Part shown: positions 652 through 12,747 of the stretch, piece by piece | Numbering within the stretch: position 1 is the stretch's first letter | How the letters are laid out: the number at the start of each line of letters is the position of its first letter | Origin: Naegleria gruberi | Lineage: Eukaryota | Reading direction: 5' to 3' (one strand) | NCBI GenBank assembly: GCA_000004985.1 | Contig: GG739001.1 | Length of the DNA: 12,747 bases | Notes under the pieces: model-generated | What the model saw: the letters and a program-made list of their open reading frames with translations, nothing else | Database searches by the model: none | Told to the model about the DNA's origin: nothing | Made by a program: the position numbers and the translations under genes

Positions 652-1086
652 ATCTACAATCTCAAATTCTGAAATATATTCAAAATGTTAAACTAAATGT
701 AGCGTCCCACACCAGAAACATTTACAATTGGAAGAAAATATGATCAGAAACAAGATTTTCGAATTGGTGTTTCTGGAGTGACTGGTGTAGTTGGAGTTTC
801 AGGTTGAGTTGGTAGCCACAACAATTTTCACAGCACTGAACGAATCACTTTGAATATTTTTGGATAGATATTGTTAAATTTGAAGATTCAAATGCCAAAC
901 CATCACATGTAATTCTTGAAATTGAGTACAAATTATAATCCCCTCCTCTCCGCAAGCTCCACCAATACATCATTTCCAAAATGCAATGACACTAATCACA
1001 GTAACCTTCTTAAAAATCTTCAAATTTTCCCTCTTTCACTGAATTTTGTGAATAGAAAACCAAAAAAAAAGATTTACAACACCAAC

Positions 1087-3401
1087 ATGCCACCATTGAT
1101 CAGTTCATCATCTCTAAATGGTGATGAATTGGAAGAACTTGATCTCAATGAAGATTATGCTGGTGGTGAAGTGTTTAAGAATGGGAATGATGATGATTCG
1201 TCCCCAGAGCCATTGCATAAGGGAGCTTCTTGGATATCAATCTTGTTCTTTATGTTTGCTGGCAAGTTGATGAGTATTGGCTTTAGAAGGGCTGGTGAGA
1301 ATTATTTGATGAAAATGATAAAGAACATGTTGAATCGTGTTGGAATCTTTGGTCGATTTGAGATTAGAAAGGAGGAGGGAATGAATCATGGGGATATTCC
1401 CAAGTTGGCCGAAAGTGAAAAGTCGAGCAATCATTGTGAATTATTCGAAAGAGAATATAGAGAATTGTATCGTGAGAGGGGCAATTATCGTGAAGATGGA
1501 GGATTTAGAAAGAATTATGGAGGTTTATTGTTGAGAGTAATTGAGAGAGTTTATAGAAGAAGAGGATTGTATACAGTTCCTTTGTGGAGAGTTGCAGAAA
1601 TGATATGTTTGTACATGTCACCACTCATTCTCTATATTTTACTCGAGTCAATCAAGGTTGATGAGTATGTGAAAAGTGCTATACCAGCAGCCACTCAATA
1701 TTTAATTCCAACATCTTCTTACGGAATATTGAGTAATGACACTGTCATTGCATCCAATTTCACAATGAACAATGAAACAAATTGGTTTCAAGAAAACTTG
1801 CCACTCTCAAATATTTTCTTCCAGTTAACTTTGGTAATTTTATTATTCACTTTCAACTCAATGGCCTCATTGTTTAATCATCAGTACTTTTTTGCAACTT
1901 CTAAAATTTGGATTCCACTCATTGGAGCTCTTCAAGGTTCAATCCTGCAAAAGTTGAATAGAATCAAGAGTGTGGAAAGAAGAAAATTCAAAAGTGGTGA
2001 GTTGAACAATCTATTTGCCATAGACACCAGAAGTGTAGCCATGGATGGTATTGATATTCATGAAGCTTGGTTAATGCCATTGACCTTAATTGTTGGTATT
2101 GTGTTGGTTTTCGTATTTTTTGGATATAGCTCACTTGTTGGTGTTCTTGCAATGATTATATGTGGACCAGTTCTTCCATTTTTGGGTAAATATCAAACTA
2201 GTTTTGCAGGCAAAGCTGCACAATTCAGAGATGAAAGAATCAAACACATGAGTGAAATATTGAATGGTATTAGAATTGTTAAATTTTATGTTTTTGAAGA
2301 TAAGATGAAAGAAAAGGTTAATCAAGCAAGAGAAAAGGAATATTCACTCCTCCGAAAGTATGTTACTGTAATGAGTGGATATTGCTTTACTTCATCCCTG
2401 ATGGCCATTGTTGGAAGTGGAGCTACTTTTGTGACTTTCTACTATGCAGGTGGAGATTTGACTTTACCTAAAATGTTTACTGGACTAGTGTTGTTTGGAA
2501 CCTTTAGATTACCATTGTTGCATTTACCTTGGGCCATTTCAAACTTGGTTTTCGCCTATGTGAGTGCCAAACGTATTGGTAGATTCTTGTTTAGTGAAGA
2601 TACTGTGAAATTACCACATGATCATGAAAATAAGGCAAACTTGTGGGAATATGATGAAGAACAAACTGAATTTTCATCCATTATGGATAATGACACTGCT
2701 ATTGAATGTAAGGATGCTTCCATTGGATGGTCAGAAGAGGAAGCTCCAACCCTCACTGATTTAAATTTGAAAATTGAGAGAGGAAAGCTCTACTGTGTCA
2801 TTGGTAATACTGGTAGTGGAAAATCAACCTTAATTTCCTCCATTTATGGTGAATCTGTTGTAAAGAGCGGAAAAGTTAAAGTTAATCCATTGTGTAATAT
2901 TTCACTCAGTGATGAAACCCCATGGTTGATCAATGCATCTGTAAGGGAAAATATTGTCTTTGATAAGAATTTAACTTTTGACAGGGAAAGATATAATAGA
3001 ATATTGGATGTTTGTCAATTAAGAGATGATCTCAGTCGATTCCCAAATTATGATAAGACTGAAATTGGTTTTTCTGGAATTAATCTTTCAGGAGGTCAAA
3101 AACATAGAATTAGTTTAGCCAGAGCTTGTTACAGTAATTCTGAAATTGTCTTGATGGATTCCACACTCAACTCAATTGATGCCAAATTGTGTAGAAAGAT
3201 TTTCAATGAATGCATTTGTGGATTTTTGAAGGATAGAACTAGAATTCTCGTTACACATTCACTTCAATTATTGGAAATGGCTGATGAAGTCATTGTTTTT
3301 GAGAATGGAAAGTTGATTGCTAAAGGGTCTTTGAAGGAAATTAAGAATTCCTATGACTTTTCCAAACTAATCTCTGAAGAAAAGGAAGAAAGTGAAACAG
3401 A
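1087..3401 (+). CDS. ABC transporter, ABCC/MRP-like (multidrug-resistance-associated-protein family). This is the 5' partial: TMD1 + NBD1, and the 3' part is lost in the N gap
   Basis: The first ATG of the long open frame is at 1087, preceded by an A-rich tract. TMD1-type conserved stretches are present: GELNNLFAIDTRSV... and ERIKHMSEILNGIRIVKFYVFE (compare ABCC GEIVNLMSVD... and NEILNGIKVLKLYAWE). NBD1 carries Walker A GNTGSGKST (around 2803-2829), the ABC signature LSGGQKHRISLARA (3085-3126), Walker B IVLMD followed by Ser rather than Asp/Glu, and the H-loop THSLQ. The ORF-track start at 916 is a TTG alternative-start artefact. The frame continues into the N run with no stop, so the gene is truncated by the gap. 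Confidence 0.85.
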
Positions 3402-6400
3402 NNNNNNNNNNNNNNNNNNNNNNNNNNNNNNNNNNNNNNNNNNNNNNNNNNNNNNNNNNNNNNNNNNNNNNNNNNNNNNNNNNNNNNNNNNNNNNNNNNN
3501 NNNNNNNNNNNNNNNNNNNNNNNNNNNNNNNNNNNNNNNNNNNNNNNNNNNNNNNNNNNNNNNNNNNNNNNNNNNNNNNNNNNNNNNNNNNNNNNNNNNN
3601 NNNNNNNNNNNNNNNNNNNNNNNNNNNNNNNNNNNNNNNNNNNNNNNNNNNNNNNNNNNNNNNNNNNNNNNNNNNNNNNNNNNNNNNNNNNNNNNNNNNN
3701 NNNNNNNNNNNNNNNNNNNNNNNNNNNNNNNNNNNNNNNNNNNNNNNNNNNNNNNNNNNNNNNNNNNNNNNNNNNNNNNNNNNNNNNNNNNNNNNNNNNN
3801 NNNNNNNNNNNNNNNNNNNNNNNNNNNNNNNNNNNNNNNNNNNNNNNNNNNNNNNNNNNNNNNNNNNNNNNNNNNNNNNNNNNNNNNNNNNNNNNNNNNN
3901 NNNNNNNNNNNNNNNNNNNNNNNNNNNNNNNNNNNNNNNNNNNNNNNNNNNNNNNNNNNNNNNNNNNNNNNNNNNNNNNNNNNNNNNNNNNNNNNNNNNN
4001 NNNNNNNNNNNNNNNNNNNNNNNNNNNNNNNNNNNNNNNNNNNNNNNNNNNNNNNNNNNNNNNNNNNNNNNNNNNNNNNNNNNNNNNNNNNNNNNNNNNN
4101 NNNNNNNNNNNNNNNNNNNNNNNNNNNNNNNNNNNNNNNNNNNNNNNNNNNNNNNNNNNNNNNNNNNNNNNNNNNNNNNNNNNNNNNNNNNNNNNNNNNN
4201 NNNNNNNNNNNNNNNNNNNNNNNNNNNNNNNNNNNNNNNNNNNNNNNNNNNNNNNNNNNNNNNNNNNNNNNNNNNNNNNNNNNNNNNNNNNNNNNNNNNN
4301 NNNNNNNNNNNNNNNNNNNNNNNNNNNNNNNNNNNNNNNNNNNNNNNNNNNNNNNNNNNNNNNNNNNNNNNNNNNNNNNNNNNNNNNNNNNNNNNNNNNN
4401 NNNNNNNNNNNNNNNNNNNNNNNNNNNNNNNNNNNNNNNNNNNNNNNNNNNNNNNNNNNNNNNNNNNNNNNNNNNNNNNNNNNNNNNNNNNNNNNNNNNN
4501 NNNNNNNNNNNNNNNNNNNNNNNNNNNNNNNNNNNNNNNNNNNNNNNNNNNNNNNNNNNNNNNNNNNNNNNNNNNNNNNNNNNNNNNNNNNNNNNNNNNN
4601 NNNNNNNNNNNNNNNNNNNNNNNNNNNNNNNNNNNNNNNNNNNNNNNNNNNNNNNNNNNNNNNNNNNNNNNNNNNNNNNNNNNNNNNNNNNNNNNNNNNN
4701 NNNNNNNNNNNNNNNNNNNNNNNNNNNNNNNNNNNNNNNNNNNNNNNNNNNNNNNNNNNNNNNNNNNNNNNNNNNNNNNNNNNNNNNNNNNNNNNNNNNN
4801 NNNNNNNNNNNNNNNNNNNNNNNNNNNNNNNNNNNNNNNNNNNNNNNNNNNNNNNNNNNNNNNNNNNNNNNNNNNNNNNNNNNNNNNNNNNNNNNNNNNN
4901 NNNNNNNNNNNNNNNNNNNNNNNNNNNNNNNNNNNNNNNNNNNNNNNNNNNNNNNNNNNNNNNNNNNNNNNNNNNNNNNNNNNNNNNNNNNNNNNNNNNN
5001 NNNNNNNNNNNNNNNNNNNNNNNNNNNNNNNNNNNNNNNNNNNNNNNNNNNNNNNNNNNNNNNNNNNNNNNNNNNNNNNNNNNNNNNNNNNNNNNNNNNN
5101 NNNNNNNNNNNNNNNNNNNNNNNNNNNNNNNNNNNNNNNNNNNNNNNNNNNNNNNNNNNNNNNNNNNNNNNNNNNNNNNNNNNNNNNNNNNNNNNNNNNN
5201 NNNNNNNNNNNNNNNNNNNNNNNNNNNNNNNNNNNNNNNNNNNNNNNNNNNNNNNNNNNNNNNNNNNNNNNNNNNNNNNNNNNNNNNNNNNNNNNNNNNN
5301 NNNNNNNNNNNNNNNNNNNNNNNNNNNNNNNNNNNNNNNNNNNNNNNNNNNNNNNNNNNNNNNNNNNNNNNNNNNNNNNNNNNNNNNNNNNNNNNNNNNN
5401 NNNNNNNNNNNNNNNNNNNNNNNNNNNNNNNNNNNNNNNNNNNNNNNNNNNNNNNNNNNNNNNNNNNNNNNNNNNNNNNNNNNNNNNNNNNNNNNNNNNN
5501 NNNNNNNNNNNNNNNNNNNNNNNNNNNNNNNNNNNNNNNNNNNNNNNNNNNNNNNNNNNNNNNNNNNNNNNNNNNNNNNNNNNNNNNNNNNNNNNNNNNN
5601 NNNNNNNNNNNNNNNNNNNNNNNNNNNNNNNNNNNNNNNNNNNNNNNNNNNNNNNNNNNNNNNNNNNNNNNNNNNNNNNNNNNNNNNNNNNNNNNNNNNN
5701 NNNNNNNNNNNNNNNNNNNNNNNNNNNNNNNNNNNNNNNNNNNNNNNNNNNNNNNNNNNNNNNNNNNNNNNNNNNNNNNNNNNNNNNNNNNNNNNNNNNN
5801 NNNNNNNNNNNNNNNNNNNNNNNNNNNNNNNNNNNNNNNNNNNNNNNNNNNNNNNNNNNNNNNNNNNNNNNNNNNNNNNNNNNNNNNNNNNNNNNNNNNN
5901 NNNNNNNNNNNNNNNNNNNNNNNNNNNNNNNNNNNNNNNNNNNNNNNNNNNNNNNNNNNNNNNNNNNNNNNNNNNNNNNNNNNNNNNNNNNNNNNNNNNN
6001 NNNNNNNNNNNNNNNNNNNNNNNNNNNNNNNNNNNNNNNNNNNNNNNNNNNNNNNNNNNNNNNNNNNNNNNNNNNNNNNNNNNNNNNNNNNNNNNNNNNN
6101 NNNNNNNNNNNNNNNNNNNNNNNNNNNNNNNNNNNNNNNNNNNNNNNNNNNNNNNNNNNNNNNNNNNNNNNNNNNNNNNNNNNNNNNNNNNNNNNNNNNN
6201 NNNNNNNNNNNNNNNNNNNNNNNNNNNNNNNNNNNNNNNNNNNNNNNNNNNNNNNNNNNNNNNNNNNNNNNNNNNNNNNNNNNNNNNNNNNNNNNNNNNN
6301 NNNNNNNNNNNNNNNNNNNNNNNNNNNNNNNNNNNNNNNNNNNNNNNNNNNNNNNNNNNNNNNNNNNNNNNNNNNNNNNNNNNNNNNNNNNNNNNNNNNN

Positions 6401-7460
6401 NNNNNNNNNNNNNNNNNNNNNNNNNNNNNNNNNNNNNNNNNNNNNNNNNNNNNNNNNNNNNNNNNNNNNNNNNNNNNNNNNNNNNNNNNNNNNNNNNNNN
6501 NNNNNNNNNNNNNNNNNNNNNNNNNNNNNNNNNNNNNNNNNNNNNNNNNNNNNNNNNNNNNNNNNNNNNNNNNNNNNNNNNNNNNNNNNNNNNNNNNNNN
6601 NNNNNNNNNNNNNNNNNNNNNNNNNNNNNNNNNNNNNNNNNNNNNNNNNNNNNNNNNNNNNNNNNNNNNNNNNNNNNNNNNNNNNNNNNNNNNNNNNNNN
6701 NNNNNNNNNNNNNNNNNNNNNNNNNNNNNNNNNNNNNNNNNNNNNNNNNNNNNNNNNNNNNNNNNNNNNNNNNNNNNNNNNNNNNNNNNNNNNNNNNNNN
6801 NNNNNNNNNNNNNNNNNNNNNNNNNNNNNNNNNNNNNNNNNNNNNNNNNNNNNNNNNNNNNNNNNNNNNNNNNNNNNNNNNNNNNNNNNNNNNNNNNNNN
6901 NNNNNNNNNNNNNNNNNNNNNNNNNNNNNNNNNNNNNNNNNNNNNNNNNNNNNNNNNNNNNNNNNNNNNNNNNNNNNNNNNNNNNNNNNNNNNNNNNNNN
7001 NNNNNNNNNNNNNNNNNNNNNNNNNNNNNNNNNNNNNNNNNNNNNNNNNNNNNNNNNNNNNNNNNNNNNNNNNNNNNNNNNNNNNNNNNNNNNNNNNNNN
7101 NNNNNNNNNNNNNNNNNNNNNNNNNNNNNNNNNNNNNNNNNNNNNNNNNNNNNNNNNNNNNNNNNNNNNNNNNNNNNNNNNNNNNNNNNNNNNNNNNNNN
7201 NNNNNNNNNNNNNNNNNNNNNNNNNNNNNNNNNNNNNNNNNNNNNNNNNNNNNNNNNNNNNNNNNNNNNNNNNNNNNNNNNNNNNNNNNNNNNNNNNNNN
7301 NNNNNNNNNNNNNNNNNNNNNNNNNNNNNNNNNNNNNNNNNNNNNNNNNNNNNNNNNNNNNNNNNNNNNNNNNNNNNNNNNNNNNNNNNNNNNNNNNNNN
7401 NNNNNNNNNNNNNNNNNNNNNNNNNNNNNNNNNNNNNNNNNNNNNNNNNNNNNNNNNNNN
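3402..7460. other. Assembly gap (4,059 N). All ORF-track entries crossing it are artefacts
   Basis: The run is uninterrupted n characters. The ORF track translates it as X in four overlapping ORFs on both strands. Confidence 1.
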
Positions 7461-7540
7461 AAAAGAAAACACTGGATTGGGATGAAAGTGGAAAAGTGGA
7501 AGTGAAAGTTTATTATCCAATACCATCTGATTCCAACTGA
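7461..7540 (+). CDS. Possible 3'-terminal coding fragment (…KKTLDWDESGKVEVKVYYPIPSDSN*) of a gene whose body lies in the gap. It is not ABCC-like
   Basis: The frame is open from the gap edge to TGA at 7538-7540. A canonical AATAAA lies immediately after it at 7541-7546. No homology is recognisable, and it could instead be non-coding. Confidence 0.2.
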
Positions 7541-7576
7541 ATAAACCCAGATTAAACCAAAACCATAACTTCTCTC

Positions 7577-7580
7577 AAAA
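7577..7580 (-). terminator. Pol III terminator T-run (TTTT) 4 nt downstream of the tRNA 3' end
   Basis: Plus-strand caaaac at 7576-7581 equals GTTTTG on the minus strand. Confidence 0.55.
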
Positions 7581-7584
7581 CTTC

Positions 7585-7657
7585 TGCTGACGGACGGGAT
7601 CGAACCGGCGACCAATGGCTTATTAGACCAACGCTCTACCGACTGAGCTACGCCAGC
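7585..7657 (-). tRNA. tRNA-Ile (anticodon AAU, read as IAU)
   Basis: The reverse complement is GCTGGCGTAGCTCAGTCGGTAGAGCGTTGGTCTAATAAGCCATTGGTCGCCGGTTCGATCCCGTCCGTCAGCA (73 nt). The 7-bp acceptor stem is GCTGGCG/CGTCAGC with one G-U. The D arm is GCTC-AGTCGGTA-GAGC. The anticodon loop is CTAATAA, giving anticodon AAT. The T arm is GCCGG-TTCGATC-CCGTC with GTTCGATC, and the discriminator is A. There is no encoded CCA, consistent with a eukaryotic gene. One mismatch occurs in each of the anticodon and T stems. A T4 run lies 4 nt downstream. Confidence 0.85.
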
Positions 7658-7659
7658 TT
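7638..7659. repeat. Direct repeat copy 1 (22 bp, accgactgagctacgccagctt). It covers the tRNA-Ile 5' end (positions -2 to about +20)
   Basis: It matches 7787-7808 at 21 of 22 positions. Confidence 0.8.
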
Positions 7660-7684
7660 ATTGATAATAATTGGTTTTAATAAT

Positions 7685-7761
7685 GCTACGTCATTTGCTT
7701 ACATTTTAAATATATTACTCAAAATTGAAATTGTTCTCAATAAAATGTAACATAACGTAGC
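7685..7761. repeat. Imperfect inverted repeat/hairpin inside the ~127-bp segment bracketed by the two tRNA-derived direct repeats. The arms are 7685-7708 and 7741-7761 and the loop is about 32 nt
   Basis: The left arm gctacgtcatttgcttacatttta pairs with the reverse complement of the right arm, ggagctacgttatgttacatttta. The matching blocks are ttacatttta/taaaatgtaa and gctacgt/acgtagc. Confidence 0.6.
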
Positions 7762-7786
7762 TCCTTCAACGTTAAAATTATTAAAT

Positions 7787-7808
7787 ACCAACTGAGCTAC
7801 GCCAGCTT
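7787..7808. repeat. Direct repeat copy 2. This is an orphan 5' fragment of tRNA-Ile (acceptor 5' strand + D stem/loop only) and is not followed by the rest of a tRNA
   Basis: accaactgagctacgccagctt. Its reverse complement, GCTGGCGTAGCTCAGTTGGT, equals tRNA positions 1-20 with one T/C difference. The sequence after it (ATTTAATAATTTTAACG...) is not tRNA-like. Confidence 0.8.
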
Positions 7809-8045
7809 CTAGAAGACCCTTAATGAACTTAGCAAATACCTTACCAATTAACATCATGGTGGACAAGCTAAAAGTACTATTTTTGAACATTTTGGTAAAT
7901 TGTGGTTGGTTCTCTTCTAACAGGAATTCAGAAGATGTCACATCTCTTAAGAACATCATAAAACTTGACAAGAAAAAATAAGCAAACAAAGCAGATCTGC
8001 AAGATTTTGAAAATTAATTTCGGAGGAACTATTCATCAAAAAAAC

Positions 8046-9333
8046 ATGGAGAAAAAACTCTACTCTCTCCAACGAGAAGAAATATTTTCAGATGATATTT
8101 GTTTTGAAATAATTTCCATGATTGATGATTCGTGGTTTATTTTGAATAATTGTTCCTTGATTTCAAAACAATTCTTTAATGTGATCAAGGAACGTTCAAA
8201 ACTTTTTATTGAATTTAAAAAAAAATTTACAGAAAAAAGAATTGAACTATTCACAAAGAGTCAATTTATGAATAGTATTGTTAAAGTTAAATTTTCAACA
8301 AATTTGTTTGTCTCTATTGAAAATCACAAATTCATAAGTGAAATGAAACAATTAACTTCACTTAATATTTCTAACAATCAAATTAATGATGAAACTGCCA
8401 AATCAATAATTGAAATGAAACGATTAACATCACTTGATATTGGTGGAAATCAAATTGGTGATGAAGGAATCAAATCAATAAGTAAAATGAAACAATTAAC
8501 ATTACTTGATATTAGTGGAAATAGCATTGGTGATAAAGGAGTCAAACCAATTAGTGAAATGAAACAATTAACATCACTCAATATTTATAACAACGAAATT
8601 GGTGTAGCAGGATCCAAATTTATAATTGAAATGAAACAATTAACATCACTTGATATAAGCTACAATAGCATTGGTGATGAAGGAGCCAAATCAATAAGTG
8701 AAATGAAACAATTAACATCACTCAATATTAGTGGAACATAGCATTGGTGTAGAAGGAGCCAAATCAATAAGTGAAATGAAACAATTAACATCACTTGATA
8801 TTGGTGAAAATCAAATTGGTGATGAAGGAGCCAAATCAATAAGTGAAATGAAACAATTAACATCACTTACTATTAGTGGAAATAGCATTGGTGATGAAGG
8901 AGTAAAATCAATACGTAAAATGAAACAACTAACATCATTTAATATAAGCTACAATGAAACTGGTGTAGCAGGAGCCAAATTTATAAGTGAAATGAAACAA
9001 TTAACATCACTTGATATAAGCTACAATGAAATTGGTGATGAAGGAGCCAAATCAATAAGTGAATTGAAACAATTAACATCACTTACTATTAGTGGAAATA
9101 GCATTGGTGTAGAAGGAGCCAAATCAATAAGTGAAATGAAACAATTAACATTACTTGATATTGGTGAAAATCAAATTGGTGATGAAGGAGCCAAATCAAT
9201 AAGTGAATTGAAACAATTAAAGTCACTTACTATTAGTGAAAATCAAATTGGTGATGAAGGAGCCAAATTTATAATTGGAATGAAACAATATGGTTCCTTT
9301 AAATTACGATTAGTAAACCTAATATGGATGTAG
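8046..9333 (+). CDS. F-box + RNI-type leucine-rich-repeat protein. The frame is broken by a 1-nt insertion at about 8737, which is either a pseudogene lesion or an assembly/sequencing error
   Basis: The protein starts MEKKLYSLQREEIFSDDICFEIISMIDDSWFILNNCSLISKQFFNVIKERSKL, a pattern like the F-box LPxEIxxxIxSxLxxxxLxxxxxVSKxW. About 13 tandem 24-aa LRRs follow, of the form SEMKQLTSLDISGNSIGDEGAKSI. The frame shifts from ORF 7965..8741 to ORF 8731..9333 at gtggaaCatagc (8731-8742). The paralogous repeat at 9093-9104 reads gtggaaatagc and lacks the C. The ATG at 8046 is the first ATG in frame. Confidence 0.75.
8337..9275 (+). repeat. Tandem array of about 13 near-identical 72-bp units, which are the coding LRR units. 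A higher-order block of about 360 bp (5 units) is duplicated at about 95% nucleotide identity (8641-8910 matches 9001-9270)
   Basis: The unit ...agtgaaatgaaacaattaacatcacttgatat...ggtgatgaaggagccaaatcaata... recurs every 72 nt. The long blocks 8641-8910 and 9001-9270 match almost base for base. Confidence 0.85.
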
Positions 9334-9501
9334 AAAGTATTTTAACAGTCCAACCTGCATTACAATTGACAGTGTTATTGTAACTGGAGTGGGATTGAAA
9401 CAAGCAAGGAATTTCATAGATTGGATAACTTCCACCATAAAAATTGCAATCAACACTTGCTTGAGTTCCAGCAGTTCCACTTAAAAAAAATAGGCAGAAC
9501 A

Positions 9502-10284
9502 ATGTTCCCATTTCACAAACGGAAAACCCAACTGTTGGACGAAACTTCATTGGAAACAGTGGATATTTTGTCTCTTGTTTTTCAATTTCTCGAGCTGAAA
9601 GAATTATTCGCTCTCCAAAAAGTATCACCCTTCTTCTACCGAACCATTGAACATTTGAAATCCTTACTGATCCGACCAATATATGAAGTTGGTTTAGTTT
9701 CGTCCGATAAGAAACAATTATCGGAATTTCTTCAACTTACTTTAAAATCAGAATTAATTAGTTCAGCCACAAAGGAAAACCCACAAAAAGTTTCAAGTAC
9801 TAGATACACTTATTATTCTACAACCGAAATCGACATGACAGATAAAAATGATGGCAATCAGCTCAAAAGTGTGAAATTTGGAGAGCATCATATGATTCAT
9901 GCTTTTAACAAGGTTGAAAAGGAGTTTGTCTTTAAGAATGATAGATTTAGAGTATTCTTTTATCCGTTGTATTGTGAAAAGAGTACGAGTTTATCACATG
10001 ATGATTATCAACGACTGGATGGGTTCATATTTTTGAATCCAAACAGCAAAGATGGATATTCAACAATGCCAAATGGATGTAGTTATTGTGCAACACTCTT
10101 GGATTATAATAATTCTTCAGTTGCCAATGAAACAGTACTAATGCCAGTAAGAAATTTCGGATCTTTTAAAGTTGAGAAAGTGAGTGAAAGATATTCGATA
10201 GAACAATCAATTCTCGACTGTATTAATTACATTTCAGAGAACTCAAATCGATCAATTCAATTGAACTCAATAGGAGATGGTTAA
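9502..10284 (+). CDS. Hypothetical protein with an N-terminal F-box-like motif and no LRRs. Its function is unknown
   Basis: The first ATG in frame is at 9502 (the ORF-track start at 9421 is TTG). The N-terminus reads ...SLETVDILSLVFQFLELKELFALQKVSPFFYRTIEHLKSL, which fits the F-box hydrophobic pattern. The remainder (…NGCSYCATLLDYNNSS…) has no recognised motif. The stop is TAA at 10282-10284. Confidence 0.55.
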   Translation: MFPFHKRKTQLLDETSLETVDILSLVFQFLELKELFALQKVSPFFYRTIEHLKSLLIRPIYEVGLVSSDKKQLSEFLQLTLKSELISSATKENPQKVSSTRYTYYSTTEIDMTDKNDGNQLKSVKFGEHHMIHAFNKVEKEFVFKNDRFRVFFYPLYCEKSTSLSHDDYQRLDGFIFLNPNSKDGYSTMPNGCSYCATLLDYNNSSVANETVLMPVRNFGSFKVEKVSERYSIEQSILDCINYISENSNRSIQLNSIGDG

Positions 10285-10337
10285 AATCATGTCTATTAGA
10301 AAAAATTTCATTAATCATTAAGGAACCCAATGATGAA

Positions 10338-10697
10338 ATGGTTGCCACTAAAATATCAGATCAAAGAGCTGATACTCTCAGAGAAAGTGAGATACATGAC
10401 CAGAAAATTGAATTCTTCAATTATCCACACAATGTCCAATTCAGTCTTTTGAAAAGACTTTACACAGCTCATTTGGGAAATGAAAATGTTAAATTCAAAG
10501 ATGATCTCTATGCCATTCAGGTTATTTTCAATCAGCAATTCAATTCTAGAAAAAGGGATTCATACGATGACCATTTGGTGGAAATGAAAACTACGCTCTC
10601 ATTCAATTTAGTATCTCAGGAAATTAAGTTCGAATACAAGAATATTACAAGAGCAAGTAGTATTGGCATTAGTAATAAAAAGTGTATCATTTGTTAG
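10338..10697 (+). CDS. Hypothetical small protein (119 aa) ending …NKKCIIC
   Basis: The ORF is ATG-initiated, and its codon usage resembles that of its neighbours. The C-terminal Cys-aliphatic-aliphatic-Cys is vaguely CaaX/prenylation-like. No other motif was recognised. Confidence 0.35.
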   Translation: MVATKISDQRADTLRESEIHDQKIEFFNYPHNVQFSLLKRLYTAHLGNENVKFKDDLYAIQVIFNQQFNSRKRDSYDDHLVEMKTTLSFNLVSQEIKFEYKNITRASSIGISNKKCIIC

Positions 10698-10838
10698 TCA
10701 ATTCCAATTAAGAAAATTCTTCTTAGATCGGAGCAATATATAAATTTTAATTTTAATTAATATTTTAAAAAATGTTGTATTAACAACTTCATCCATCTAC
10801 CAAATCATCATCACGAATAACAAAATAAATCATCAAAA

Positions 10839-11921
10839 ATGGGCAATAATCAAACCACTTCTCACAGATCCCTTCCTACCGAGCATGCATCTTTCTCCAA
10901 TTCTTCTCGCGAATATGCCAATCAATACATAATGATCGCAGGTGGTCCATCAGTAGTAATTTATCAAGGCTTGGTTGATCAAATAATTTCTATCGAAAAT
11001 CGAATAGAAAATGCTGCTAATTATGAGAAGGTAAAGAGTGAATGTTTGAAAGGTATTCATCAACGTTTGGTGAAATATTTCCCTGTTCATTTTCATGATA
11101 CAGTTTCGGAAAAGATAGAAGAACAATTGGTTGACCTGTGGCATAGCCCCAATTTTAAAGAGGAATACTTTGCGAATAGATTCCAGGTAGATCCATACTT
11201 GGTCTTGCCAACTGTATTTAATAATTTGGAGAGAGGAATCAAATTTAATTTGAAAAGAACTTGCTTGTTCCAACCAGCAGGTAGACAATATTATTTCACA
11301 ACATGCTATTCGAAAACAACTGATAATTTTCCACACAGCCGTAATCAAAAGTTGACATTTGAATTATTTGCTAATTGTTTTTCTGCTGATACTTGGGCTG
11401 ATGTAGTTGGAGCATCATTTTCTCTATCTGACTATGATAACAATCAATATTTAGATGAATTTTATCAAGTGTGTAGAAGATTGTCTGGATTTTCTACATA
11501 CAGAATGATTTTAATATTTACTCATCTTGATGTTCTCAATGAAAAGATAAAGTTGGGACTAATTAACTTTGGAGGAGATAAAGATATAGAAATTCGAAAA
11601 GAATTCAACCATATTCCAAAAGAATGTGCTCTCATCATTGAATATCTCATCAAAGAAGCCATCAAAAATATAGAAATGAATCCAAGCCATGACTTTCCCA
11701 ATAGGACATTGGAATACCACATTGTAAATACATCAAGTGACAGTGATATGAAAGAATTATTGGATTGTATTTGTATTGGAGCAAATTCTAAGAGAAAATG
11801 CTTCATATCCTCTAAAATTGAAATGCCACCTTTCTCATATCCTAACACCAGATTCAAGAGCAACATGCACAGAACCTCAGAACTAAATCAGTTTTGTGAT
11901 ATTGCAATATTGCTAAATTGA
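10839..11921 (+). CDS. Divergent heterotrimeric G-protein alpha-subunit-like protein. Its nucleotide-binding motifs are degenerate (candidate pseudo-GTPase), it has an N-myristoylation motif, and it carries a C-terminal extension
   Basis: (1) N-terminus MGNNQTTS fits the N-myristoylation consensus M-G-x-x-x-S/T, as in G-alpha. (2) YIMIAGGPSVVIYQGLVDQI aligns with the G-alpha P-loop region [21 protein letters not shown] but lacks GKS/T. (3) CLFQPAGRQYYF aligns with FDVGGQRSERKKW, so DxxGQ is lost. (4) FSLSDYDNNQYLDEFYQVCRRLSGFSTYRMILIFTHLDVLNEKIK aligns closely with FCVALSEYD…LFDSICNN…SIILFLNKKDLFEEKIK, with NKxD replaced by THLD. (5) YHIVNTSSDSDMKELLDCI aligns with HFTCATDTxNIRFVFxAV, so TCAT is lost. 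(6) About 45 extra residues follow the core. The stop is TGA at 11919-11921. Confidence 0.6.
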   Translation: MGNNQTTSHRSLPTEHASFSNSSREYANQYIMIAGGPSVVIYQGLVDQIISIENRIENAANYEKVKSECLKGIHQRLVKYFPVHFHDTVSEKIEEQLVDLWHSPNFKEEYFANRFQVDPYLVLPTVFNNLERGIKFNLKRTCLFQPAGRQYYFTTCYSKTTDNFPHSRNQKLTFELFANCFSADTWADVVGASFSLSDYDNNQYLDEFYQVCRRLSGFSTYRMILIFTHLDVLNEKIKLGLINFGGDKDIEIRKEFNHIPKECALIIEYLIKEAIKNIEMNPSHDFPNRTLEYHIVNTSSDSDMKELLDCICIGANSKRKCFISSKIEMPPFSYPNTRFKSNMHRTSELNQFCDIAILLN

Positions 11922-11966
11922 CTTTAGTTTTCCATTTCCTAAAGGTCAGAACTCTCAAAATAAAAA

Positions 11967-12747
11967 ATGAGCCAACAAGAAAAGGAGGAAACAGTGGCAC
12001 CAACCAAAGAAGAATCACAGCCAGTTTTTCCCGATGATGTGATATTTGAAATTATTTCCTTCAATAATGATTTTAAATTTACAGTAAGGAGTTGTGCGTT
12101 GGTTTCTTCACAGTGGTTTAATATCATTTCGGAAAGATCAAAACTTTCACTCACACACAACAGTAAAAAGAAAATTAATGGCCAATTTTTACAGCGTATT
12201 GTAGCTGTATTCCATTTCTTGATCAAGTATTTGATCTCAAGAACTTGACTACCCTTGACGTTAATTGTATGAAAATTAAAGATGAAGGAGTAAAGATAAT
12301 AAGTGAAATGAAACAGTTGACCAATCTTAATGTAGGCAGCAGTGGTATTAGTGTTGAGGGAGTCAAATATATCAGCGGCATGAATCAATTAACTAATCTC
12401 AATATAAGCCGCAATAATATACGAGCAGAAGGAGCCCGTTACGTTAGTGAAATGAAACTATTAACCAATCTTAATATTTATTTAAACGGTATTAGAGCAG
12501 AAGGTACCAAATACATCAGTGAAATGAAAGAATTGACTTGTCTTAATATAATGAGTAATGCAATTCACGATAAAGGCGCAGAATACCTTCGTCAAATGCC
12601 TAAATTGAAGACACTCAATATTAATTCAAATAGTATCAGTGTAGAAGGAGCCAAATTTATTAGTGAAATACAGTCATTAACTAATCTTGACATTGGTTTC
12701 AATACTATTGGAGATGACGGTGTCAAATTTATAAGCAAAATGGAAAA
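11967..12747 (+). CDS. F-box + RNI-type LRR protein, a paralogue of the 8046 gene. It is 3'-partial, running off the window, and has an apparent 1-nt frameshift between about 12179 and 12225
   Basis: The N-terminus is MSQQEKEE…VFPDDVIFEIISFNNDFKFTVRSCALVSSQWFNIISERSKLSL, an F-box very similar to that of gene 8046. The track ORF stops at 12248 (…HFLIKYLISRT*). The +2 frame, which is open from 12179, reads …FLDQVFDLKNLTTLDVNCMKIKDEGVKIISEMKQLTNLNVGSSGISVEGVKYISGMNQLTNLNISRNNIRAEGARYVSEMK… (24-aa LRRs) to the end of the window. The likely true reading is …RIVAVFHFLDQVFDLKNLTTLDV…, with an indel in or near the ttt homopolymer at 12215-12217. Confidence 0.7.

Follow-up and report, generated by a model that had tools for sequence, protein, structure and literature searches.

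An intact Naegleria gruberi gene for a divergent G-alpha paralogue, best read as a nucleotide-free pseudoGTPase

Lineage-specific diversification of heterotrimeric G-protein alpha subunits (G-alpha) in Naegleria gruberi is established (PMC3971589), and the review PMC8584482, citing Anantharaman et al. 2011, gives a number of 44 G-alpha subunits for this species. The same review describes catalytic motifs that deviate in a part of the G-alpha proteins of Dictyostelium, Naegleria and plants, suggesting that nucleotide-dependent activity is reduced or lost in these proteins. In this study, the G-alpha-like gene NAEGRDRAFT_54707 of N. gruberi was analyzed, which is located on a stretch of 12,747 bp (contig GG739001.1 of assembly GCA_000004985.1, referred to as the window) representing the complete scaffold that carries this gene. 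The open reading frame (ORF) at positions 10839-11921 is real and its gene model is single-exon. Its product is identical over the full length (100% identity) to XP_002668607.1 (UniProt D2W4Z1), which is labelled 'predicted protein [Naegleria gruberi]' at NCBI and is annotated but uncharacterised; no mention of the accession numbers of this protein was found in the literature searched. The locus is interpreted as an intact gene for a lineage-specific, divergent G-alpha paralogue, and its product, termed the query in the following, is best read as a class-i (nucleotide-free) pseudoGTPase, a reading to which a probability of approximately 0.75 was assigned.

Among the closest described systems are the G-alpha proteins of the same genus. 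For N. fowleri, 13 G-alphas were identified, and G-alpha-1, 2, 3, 5, 6 and 7 were produced recombinantly (Bosch et al. 2022, PMC9283941). The G-alphas of N. fowleri either cycle nucleotides or show a response to AlF4-, and the tryptophan of switch II is reportedly conserved in all 13 of them (PMC9283941). The query results from the same lineage-specific diversification; however, it possesses no switch II, and the clade to which it belongs lies outside those 13 proteins. Plant XLG1-3 (extra-large G proteins) feature degenerate catalytic motifs and are reported to act independently of nucleotides and to still bind G-beta-gamma and RGS proteins (PMC8584482). They represent a functional analogy, namely G-alpha working without a GTP switch, and no membership is claimed for the query: XLGs are of independent plant origin and carry a long N-terminal extension, whereas the query combines a short N-terminus with the deletion of switch II and with a C-terminal tail. 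Class-i pseudoGTPases (classification of Stiegler & Boggon 2020, as cited in PMC13393502) include the microsporidian ArlEM proteins. These share with the query the GTPase fold, mutated G motifs, deleted canonical elements and the inferred inability to bind nucleotide, but they are Arf-like small GTPases and not G-alpha, and in both cases the classification is based on sequence and modelling alone. Finally, canonical G-alpha proteins (human G-alpha-i1 and G-alpha-s; Pfam family PF00503) resemble the query in SLSDYD of beta4, ILIF..D of beta5, NEKIK of alphaG, in beta6 and in the MG start. In contrast to them, the query remains below the gathering threshold of the family, has lost the motifs, lacks switch II by deletion and has no predicted alphaN helix. 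Moreover, canonical G-alpha ends in a receptor-inserting tail, whereas the query features a short alpha5 followed by a tail that is longer by approximately 34 amino acids (aa).

Loss of the nucleotide-contact motifs

Within the whole protein, neither GxxxxGK[ST] nor GK[ST] nor [NT]KxD was detected by a regular-expression scan. At the site of the canonical G1 motif LLLGSGESGKST, the query contains IMIAGGPSVVIYQG, and the loop is three residues shorter. AlphaFold2 (AF2) predicted a strand at aa 29/30-35; after it, aa 39-56 in the P-loop area were modelled with low confidence. In G4, NKxD is changed to THLD, with the aspartate being kept and the lysine being replaced by histidine. In G5, VNTS is present in place of TCAT; the encompassing HIVNT is found throughout the subfamily described below, and AF2 predicted a strand at aa 290-296 with values of approximately 82-90 in the predicted local distance difference test (pLDDT). 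An earlier note on this DNA, made from the sequence, had stated that all four nucleotide-contact motifs are replaced. Three of these replacements, namely P-loop to AGGPSVVIY, NKxD to THLD and TCAT to VNTS, were correct by alignment. Likewise, the SLSDYD block and the ILIFTHLDVLNEKIK block (ILIFxxxDxLNEKIK in that note) could be confirmed and correspond in the alignments to the beta4 and the beta5/G4 region of G-alpha, respectively.

The fourth replacement, DVGGQ to QPAGRQ, had been assigned to the wrong site. QPAGRQ (aa 145-150, nt 11271-11288) was rejected as G3, since three alignment methods place it in linker 2 / switch I, approximately 30 residues upstream. The true G3 is a deletion: the 12 canonical residues DVGGQRSERKKW of G3/switch II are deleted between F177 and A178 according to L-INS-i, hhalign and the hidden Markov model (HMM) alignment. 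FELF/ANCF of the query (the slash marking the deletion site) aligns to FKMF...IHCF, and hhalign pairs ANCF with IHCF. For the N. gruberi paralogue NAEGRDRAFT_62775, the HMM alignment features an explicit 12-residue deletion at switch II, and the beta3/switch II deletion block is 85% identical between the two paralogues. The only DxxG of the query, DVVG (aa 188-191), was also rejected as a cryptic G3; it is located inside beta4 and reads DVVA in the paralogue.

Regarding switch I, no arginine finger, threonine and glycine (RxxTxG) were recognisable in register, the aligned segment being RQYYFTTCYSK in a low-confidence alignment. The surrounding region (aa 137-173) showed pLDDT values below 50 in both AF2 models and yet 45-65% identity to the paralogue. 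Based on these alignments, loss of the nucleotide-contact motifs in the query is supported. The query is a new case of a known kind, with an unusually thorough motif loss in a G-alpha of the Naegleria expansion. The previous statement that such pseudo-G-alpha proteins are rarely described needs qualifying, since motif deviation in Naegleria is already contained in PMC8584482.

Descent from G-alpha and the divergent Naegleria-type subfamily

Homology of the query to G-alpha had to be secured via intermediate sequences, because direct searches were weak or empty. An exhaustive profile search in 1.84 billion representative proteins (E up to 1e-3) yielded 11 relatives, including the paralogue NAEGRDRAFT_62775 (labelled P0002, the query being P0001) and an environmental fragment (P0003). 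Named relatives originate from N. lovaniensis and N. gruberi, and the remainder are environmental. Nine of the 11 relatives match Pfam G-alpha at 27-172 bits and six exceed the cut-off of 48.8 bits; the paralogue reached 15.8 bits (E 0.008), and no Pfam match was obtained for fragment P0003. The profile of the 12-sequence family matched canonical animal, fungal and plant G-alpha at 1e-34 to 1e-15, and its best match within the PDB was N. fowleri Galpha7 (6NE6_A, 2.6e-33). Furthermore, a profile built from canonical G-alpha and the subfamily members outside the query clade scored 82.5 bits on the query over aa 46-359 and 85 bits on the paralogue.

AF2 modelling with the 12-sequence alignment resulted in a pLDDT of 58.6 and a predicted template modelling score (pTM) of 0.54, and model 2 obtained with a 54-sequence alignment including canonical G-alpha showed a pLDDT of 72.5 and a pTM of 0.71. 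Structure prediction was in line with the earlier assignment: for both models, 50 of 50 listed Foldseek matches in the PDB were G-alpha proteins (Gs, Golf, Gi/o, Gq, G13, AtGPA1, rice and Entamoeba). Confidence of the model was high within the helical domain (aa ~59-135) as well as within the C-terminal Ras-like half (aa ~185-330), with pLDDT values of 80-97 for the C-terminal half of the query. Low confidence was assigned to aa 1-24, 39-56 and 137-180, and the latter two segments represent the former nucleotide-binding elements, i.e. P-loop/alpha1, linker 2, switch I, beta2-beta3 and the switch II site. No helix was predicted within aa 1-29, meaning that alphaN is missing from the model, and pLDDT was below 50 for aa 1-24. 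Alpha5 is short (aa 301-311). Alpha1 and the helical-domain region together comprise 104 aa in the query versus 124 in Gi, i.e. about 20 fewer, in agreement with the previously noticed shortening of this region. A Ras-like GTPase domain with an inserted all-helical domain was found in the predicted structure, in which the GTPase fold appears to be kept. Remote descent of the query from G-alpha, as previously claimed, is supported via intermediate sequences and predicted structure, and because of these two lines of evidence a chance resemblance is effectively excluded.

The query belongs to a divergent, Naegleria-type subfamily that is monophyletic with 100% bootstrap support in a neighbour-joining tree (296 columns, 200 bootstraps). 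Its members include N. lovaniensis XP_044553234.1 and XP_044549842.1, N. gruberi XP_002675255.1 (P0008) and environmental sequences among P0006-P0012. The subfamily N-terminus starts with MGxKxS, comprises 8-38 residues before beta1 and is not predicted to be helical. TK[PVA]D represents G4 in place of NKxD, and HIVNT represents G5 in place of TCAT. Between 48 and 61 residues follow G5, compared to 23-25 in canonical G-alpha, consisting of a short alpha5 and a tail with [FY]IS[PS] and L[CT]DI. H294 and N297 (query numbering) are invariant or nearly so. The arginine finger of switch I is not conserved even in the best-preserved member and is missing from most, and the catalytic glutamine is kept in one member only. 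The query shares HIVNT, T[KH]xD, the FISP...CDI tail and the MG start with the subfamily; however, GK[ST], a D/E-x-G-G switch II and TKxD are still found in the majority of the other members, whereas the query clade has lost all three.

In the alignments, the members can be arranged in a graded series that begins with intact GKS/T and DVGGQ and ends with their complete loss. P0009 possesses the P-loop GTSDSGKST and the G3 motif DVGGQ; P0012, P0006 and P0004 retain GKS/T in the P-loop and have lost the switch II glutamine; N. gruberi P0008 features a P-loop GSGASTFS without lysine and the G3 sequence EIGGS, in which aspartate and glutamine are lost; and in the query clade a P-loop without GK[ST] is combined with a deleted G3/switch II. 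P0008 retains the switch II GG and TKPD and looks like an intermediate stage of motif erosion within the N. gruberi genome.

The query clade consists of the query, the paralogue NAEGRDRAFT_62775 and the environmental fragment P0003. The paralogue is encoded on a separate 712-kb scaffold in an undisrupted frame and shows 55% identity to the query. Both full-length proteins share the loss of Walker A GK[ST], of the switch I residues and of DxxGQ/switch II, and the G4 lysine is lost in all three clade sequences (TH[LP]D versus TK[PVA]D in the rest of the subfamily). Query and paralogue group with 100% bootstrap support, and an N. lovaniensis protein with intact GKST is placed as their sister (71%), indicating that the motif loss is derived. 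Identity between the paralogues is highest in the rebuilt regions, namely 85% over aa 171-200 and 80-85% over aa 291-320. This block-wise identity, together with the shared THxD, argues, albeit thinly, for constraint on the sequence and not for free decay. Fragment P0003 (137 aa, 41% identity) corresponds to the C-terminal exon only, originates from a 1.1-kb environmental contig and shares THPD and the tail. Nucleotides 1-40 of this contig (L001) contain an apparent intron 3' end (...tttatag), with the ATG of the reading frame at nt 39; at least this clade member appears to contain an intron directly ahead of beta5, in contrast to the N. gruberi gene with its single exon. Further clade members were found neither in a scan of metagenome contigs nor in a protein search with P0003, which returned only itself.

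Gene features, tail and neighbouring genes

The features recognised within the gene are summarized in Table 1. The N-terminal MGNNQTT fits the PROSITE-type N-myristoylation pattern G-{EDRKHPFYW}-x(2)-[STAGCN]-{P}, in agreement with the MGxxxT signal noticed earlier, and approximately 29 residues precede beta1.

Table 1. Features of the G-alpha-like gene in the window
Feature	Position (nt)	Strand	Evidence or remark
G-alpha-like ORF, 360 aa plus TGA, single exon	10839..11921	+	ATG-to-TGA, identical to NCBI model
N-terminal MGNNQTT, myristoylation-type (Gly2, Thr6)	10839..10859	+	pattern match
Beta1 and P-loop remnant, aa 30-44, YIMIAGGPSVVIYQG; canonical G-alpha LLLGSGESGKST	10926..10970	+	alignments, regular-expression scan
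All-helical domain, aa ~59-135	11013..11243	+	
AlphaF, linker 2, switch I, beta2 region, aa 137-173	11247..11357	+	alignments; contains QPAGRQ
Beta3 and switch II deletion site, aa 172-186, LTFELF/ANCFSADTW	11352..11396	+	L-INS-i, hhalign, HMM alignment
Beta4 and SLSDYD block, aa 187-200	11397..11438	+	alignments; AF2 strand aa 189-195
Beta5 and G4 remnant, aa 224-231, ILIFTHLD	11508..11531	+	alignments
Beta6 and G5 remnant, aa 293-299, YHIVNTS, versus HFTCATD	11715..11735	+	alignments
C-terminal tail, aa 314-360 (47 aa), after short alpha5	11778..11918	+	alignments; model confident to ~aa 330

The C-terminal tail contains the motifs CFIS (aa 321-324) and CDI (aa 353-355). In total, 59 residues follow G5 in the query versus 25 in Gi; the C-terminal extension of ~45 aa mentioned in the earlier note therefore exists, but it amounts to approximately 34 aa and represents a trait of the whole subfamily. 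The altered receptor coupling deduced from it is not supported, since the tail is common to all members, including those with intact GKS/T. In all subfamily members, the tail is composed of [FY]IS[PS]x[LI], 15-25 aa, L[CT]DIx[LIV] and 3-8 residues up to the stop. L-INS-i pairs the terminal LCDIxL with the canonical receptor-contact tail NLKDCGLF, and the 'extension' may accordingly be an insertion interrupting alpha5. LCDIxL as the start of a BTB domain was considered and found to be unsupported; a Pfam search with the tail (E up to 10) identified no family beyond one match at chance level. In both AF2 models, DSSP assigned isolated single-residue bridges at W186 (nt 11394-11396, in DTW) and F322 (nt 11802-11804, in CFIS). 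The W186/F322 bridges hint that the tail may pack onto the rebuilt switch II face.

The window has a G+C content of approximately 32% and contains a run of N at ~3400-7480 (~4 kb). An ABC transporter ORF (ABC_membrane and ABC_tran) at 916-3390 (+) runs into this gap, and the corresponding gene is incomplete in the assembly. On both sides of the G-alpha-like gene lie genes for F-box or F-box-like proteins, two of which are joined to LRR_6 repeats, at 7965-9333, 9421-10284 and 11967-12747 (all +). Within the first of these, the ORFs 7965-8741 and 8731-9333 overlap in different frames and probably represent a single leucine-rich repeat (LRR) gene containing either a short intron or a frameshift. 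Within the last, the F-box-like ORF 11967-12248 and an LRR ORF starting at 12269 are separated by a stop that probably marks a short intron. Directly upstream of the G-alpha-like gene, a 119-aa ORF with the C-terminus ...KKCIIC is located at 10338-10697 (+). No Pfam match was obtained for it; this ORF could represent a small gene of its own, or else an additional exon of the F-box gene at 9421-10284.

Proposed role, competing explanations and significance

The class-i pseudoGTPase reading is based on the loss of G1, of G3/switch II and of the G4 lysine. Without P-loop, Mg2+/gamma-phosphate sensors, switch II and G4 lysine, canonical GTP binding and hydrolysis would be impossible. In G-alpha proteins, the switch II surface is the recognition site of G-beta-gamma, RGS proteins and effectors. 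The query could not present such a surface to these partners, while the G-alpha scaffold, i.e. the helical domain and the beta4-alpha5 half of the Ras-like domain, would be kept. As judged from the consensus, the protein is probably N-myristoylated, and it probably acts via protein-protein contacts independent of the nucleotide state, with a putative role as adaptor, scaffold or decoy. The earlier note had proposed a membrane-anchored protein, probably incapable of GTP binding or hydrolysis, that could be a scaffolding or dominant-negative-like paralogue; whereas ORF, homology, motif loss and predicted fold were demonstrated here, these functional proposals are inferences. The likeliest contact sites would be the blocks best conserved between the paralogues, namely the face formed by beta3, the former switch II and beta4, and beta6-alpha5 together with the start of the tail.

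Several results weigh against this interpretation. The Pfam G-alpha profile does match the query (E 3.8e-7), but the score of 30 bits remains below the gathering cut-off of 48.8 bits. The significant region is restricted to aa 208-309, and phmmer with the query against all PDB sequences (E up to 10) returned no match; the whole-length alignment with G-alpha stated previously was consequently overstated. A profile of the query clade only recovered Gs chains only from the PDB, at E = 2, and in an hhalign comparison between the two paralogues and 10 canonical G-alphas the probability was 13.8% over aa 178-239. Foldseek TM-scores of the better AF2 model were only 0.40-0.47, and its fold is not fully independent of the hypothesis, because the underlying alignment includes canonical G-alpha. 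The G4 aspartate D231 is invariant in all 54 aligned sequences, leaving some room for residual base recognition. Myristoylation is suggested by a pattern match; neither a palmitoylatable Cys3 nor a basic cluster is present as a second membrane signal, and any membrane binding would therefore be weak or conditional. Moreover, the degenerate clade comprises only three sequences in approximately 15 billion proteins, by which long-term retention is thinly supported.

An explanation that assigns no function to the protein is decay: the gene would be a functionless duplicate and a recent relic from the very large N. gruberi G-alpha expansion, with a drifting open frame and with motif loss as a sign of erosion. 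Redundancy is plausible in view of the 44 G-alpha genes reported in PMC8584482, none of the three clade sequences is assigned to N. fowleri or N. lovaniensis, and the gene is located on a tiny, gap-ridden scaffold. However, the frame of 360 codons is intact in AT-rich DNA, in which approximately 8% of random codons are stops, and the chance probability of such a stop-free run at the base composition of the scaffold is ~5e-14. Furthermore, a paralogue with 55% identity and no frame disruption exists, keeping 80-85% identity over aa 171-200 and 291-320; the derived THxD is common to the third sequence (P0003, 41% identity) from a different assembly; and the C-terminal half is predicted at high confidence. 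Decay is therefore considered unlikely. The loss of motifs could also be apparent in the sense of a gene-model or assembly artefact, with the missing elements residing in lost exons or lost sequence and the protein being an ordinary G-alpha. The 12.7-kb scaffold with its ~4-kb run of N, a gene model of the paralogue without the first 39 residues and the start of P0003 just past an intron, by which introns are known to occur in the clade, are compatible with this possibility. In contrast, one uninterrupted ORF with a good MG N-terminus encompasses both the degenerate P-loop and the switch II deletion, the same deletion occurs in the paralogue on a different scaffold of 712 kb, and the N gap is separated from the gene by more than 3 kb of upstream sequence containing three other ORFs. 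Since no Walker-A-like peptide was found in any frame of positions 7500-12747, a missed exon is unlikely, and an artefact as a whole is rated as very improbable indeed.

A further explanation is nucleotide binding in a non-canonical manner, with Asp231, Asn297/Thr298 and remodelled loops forming an atypical pocket for a guanine or other nucleotide and the query being a class-ii or class-iii pseudoGTPase. Nucleotide binding despite poor motifs does occur in some proteins with a GTPase fold, and the invariance of D231 as well as the (near) invariance of H294 and N297 within the subfamily would fit such a pocket. Nevertheless, a Walker A lysine or Ser/Thr is absent from the entire protein, the loop is short by three residues, switch II is deleted and the G4 lysine is changed to histidine. 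In addition, the segments that would have to form the pocket are low-confidence parts of the model. Atypical binding is consequently regarded as quite improbable.

Beyond the reading of the single gene as a class-i pseudoGTPase, a more specific scenario is put forward tentatively, as possible rather than probable: a conserved Naegleria clade of switchless G-alpha pseudoGTPases, devoid of P-loop and switch II but retaining helical domain, beta4-alpha5 half, myristoylation signal and FISP...CDI tail, with the tail on the former switch II face, may serve as constitutive, nucleotide-independent membrane adaptors or as decoys for partners of the active subfamily members and would represent a second, independent invention of this kind besides the plant XLGs.

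The practical impact of the finding is limited, given three clade sequences and the motif deviation already noted for Naegleria, and no long-standing open question is touched. If expressed and truly nucleotide-free, the query would represent a natural G-alpha scaffold without a GTP switch outside plants. It would also, if true, provide a clean case in which switch II was deleted outright and not mutated. Furthermore, the graded series within the subfamily could reveal what the G-alpha fold retains for interactions that do not depend on nucleotide.

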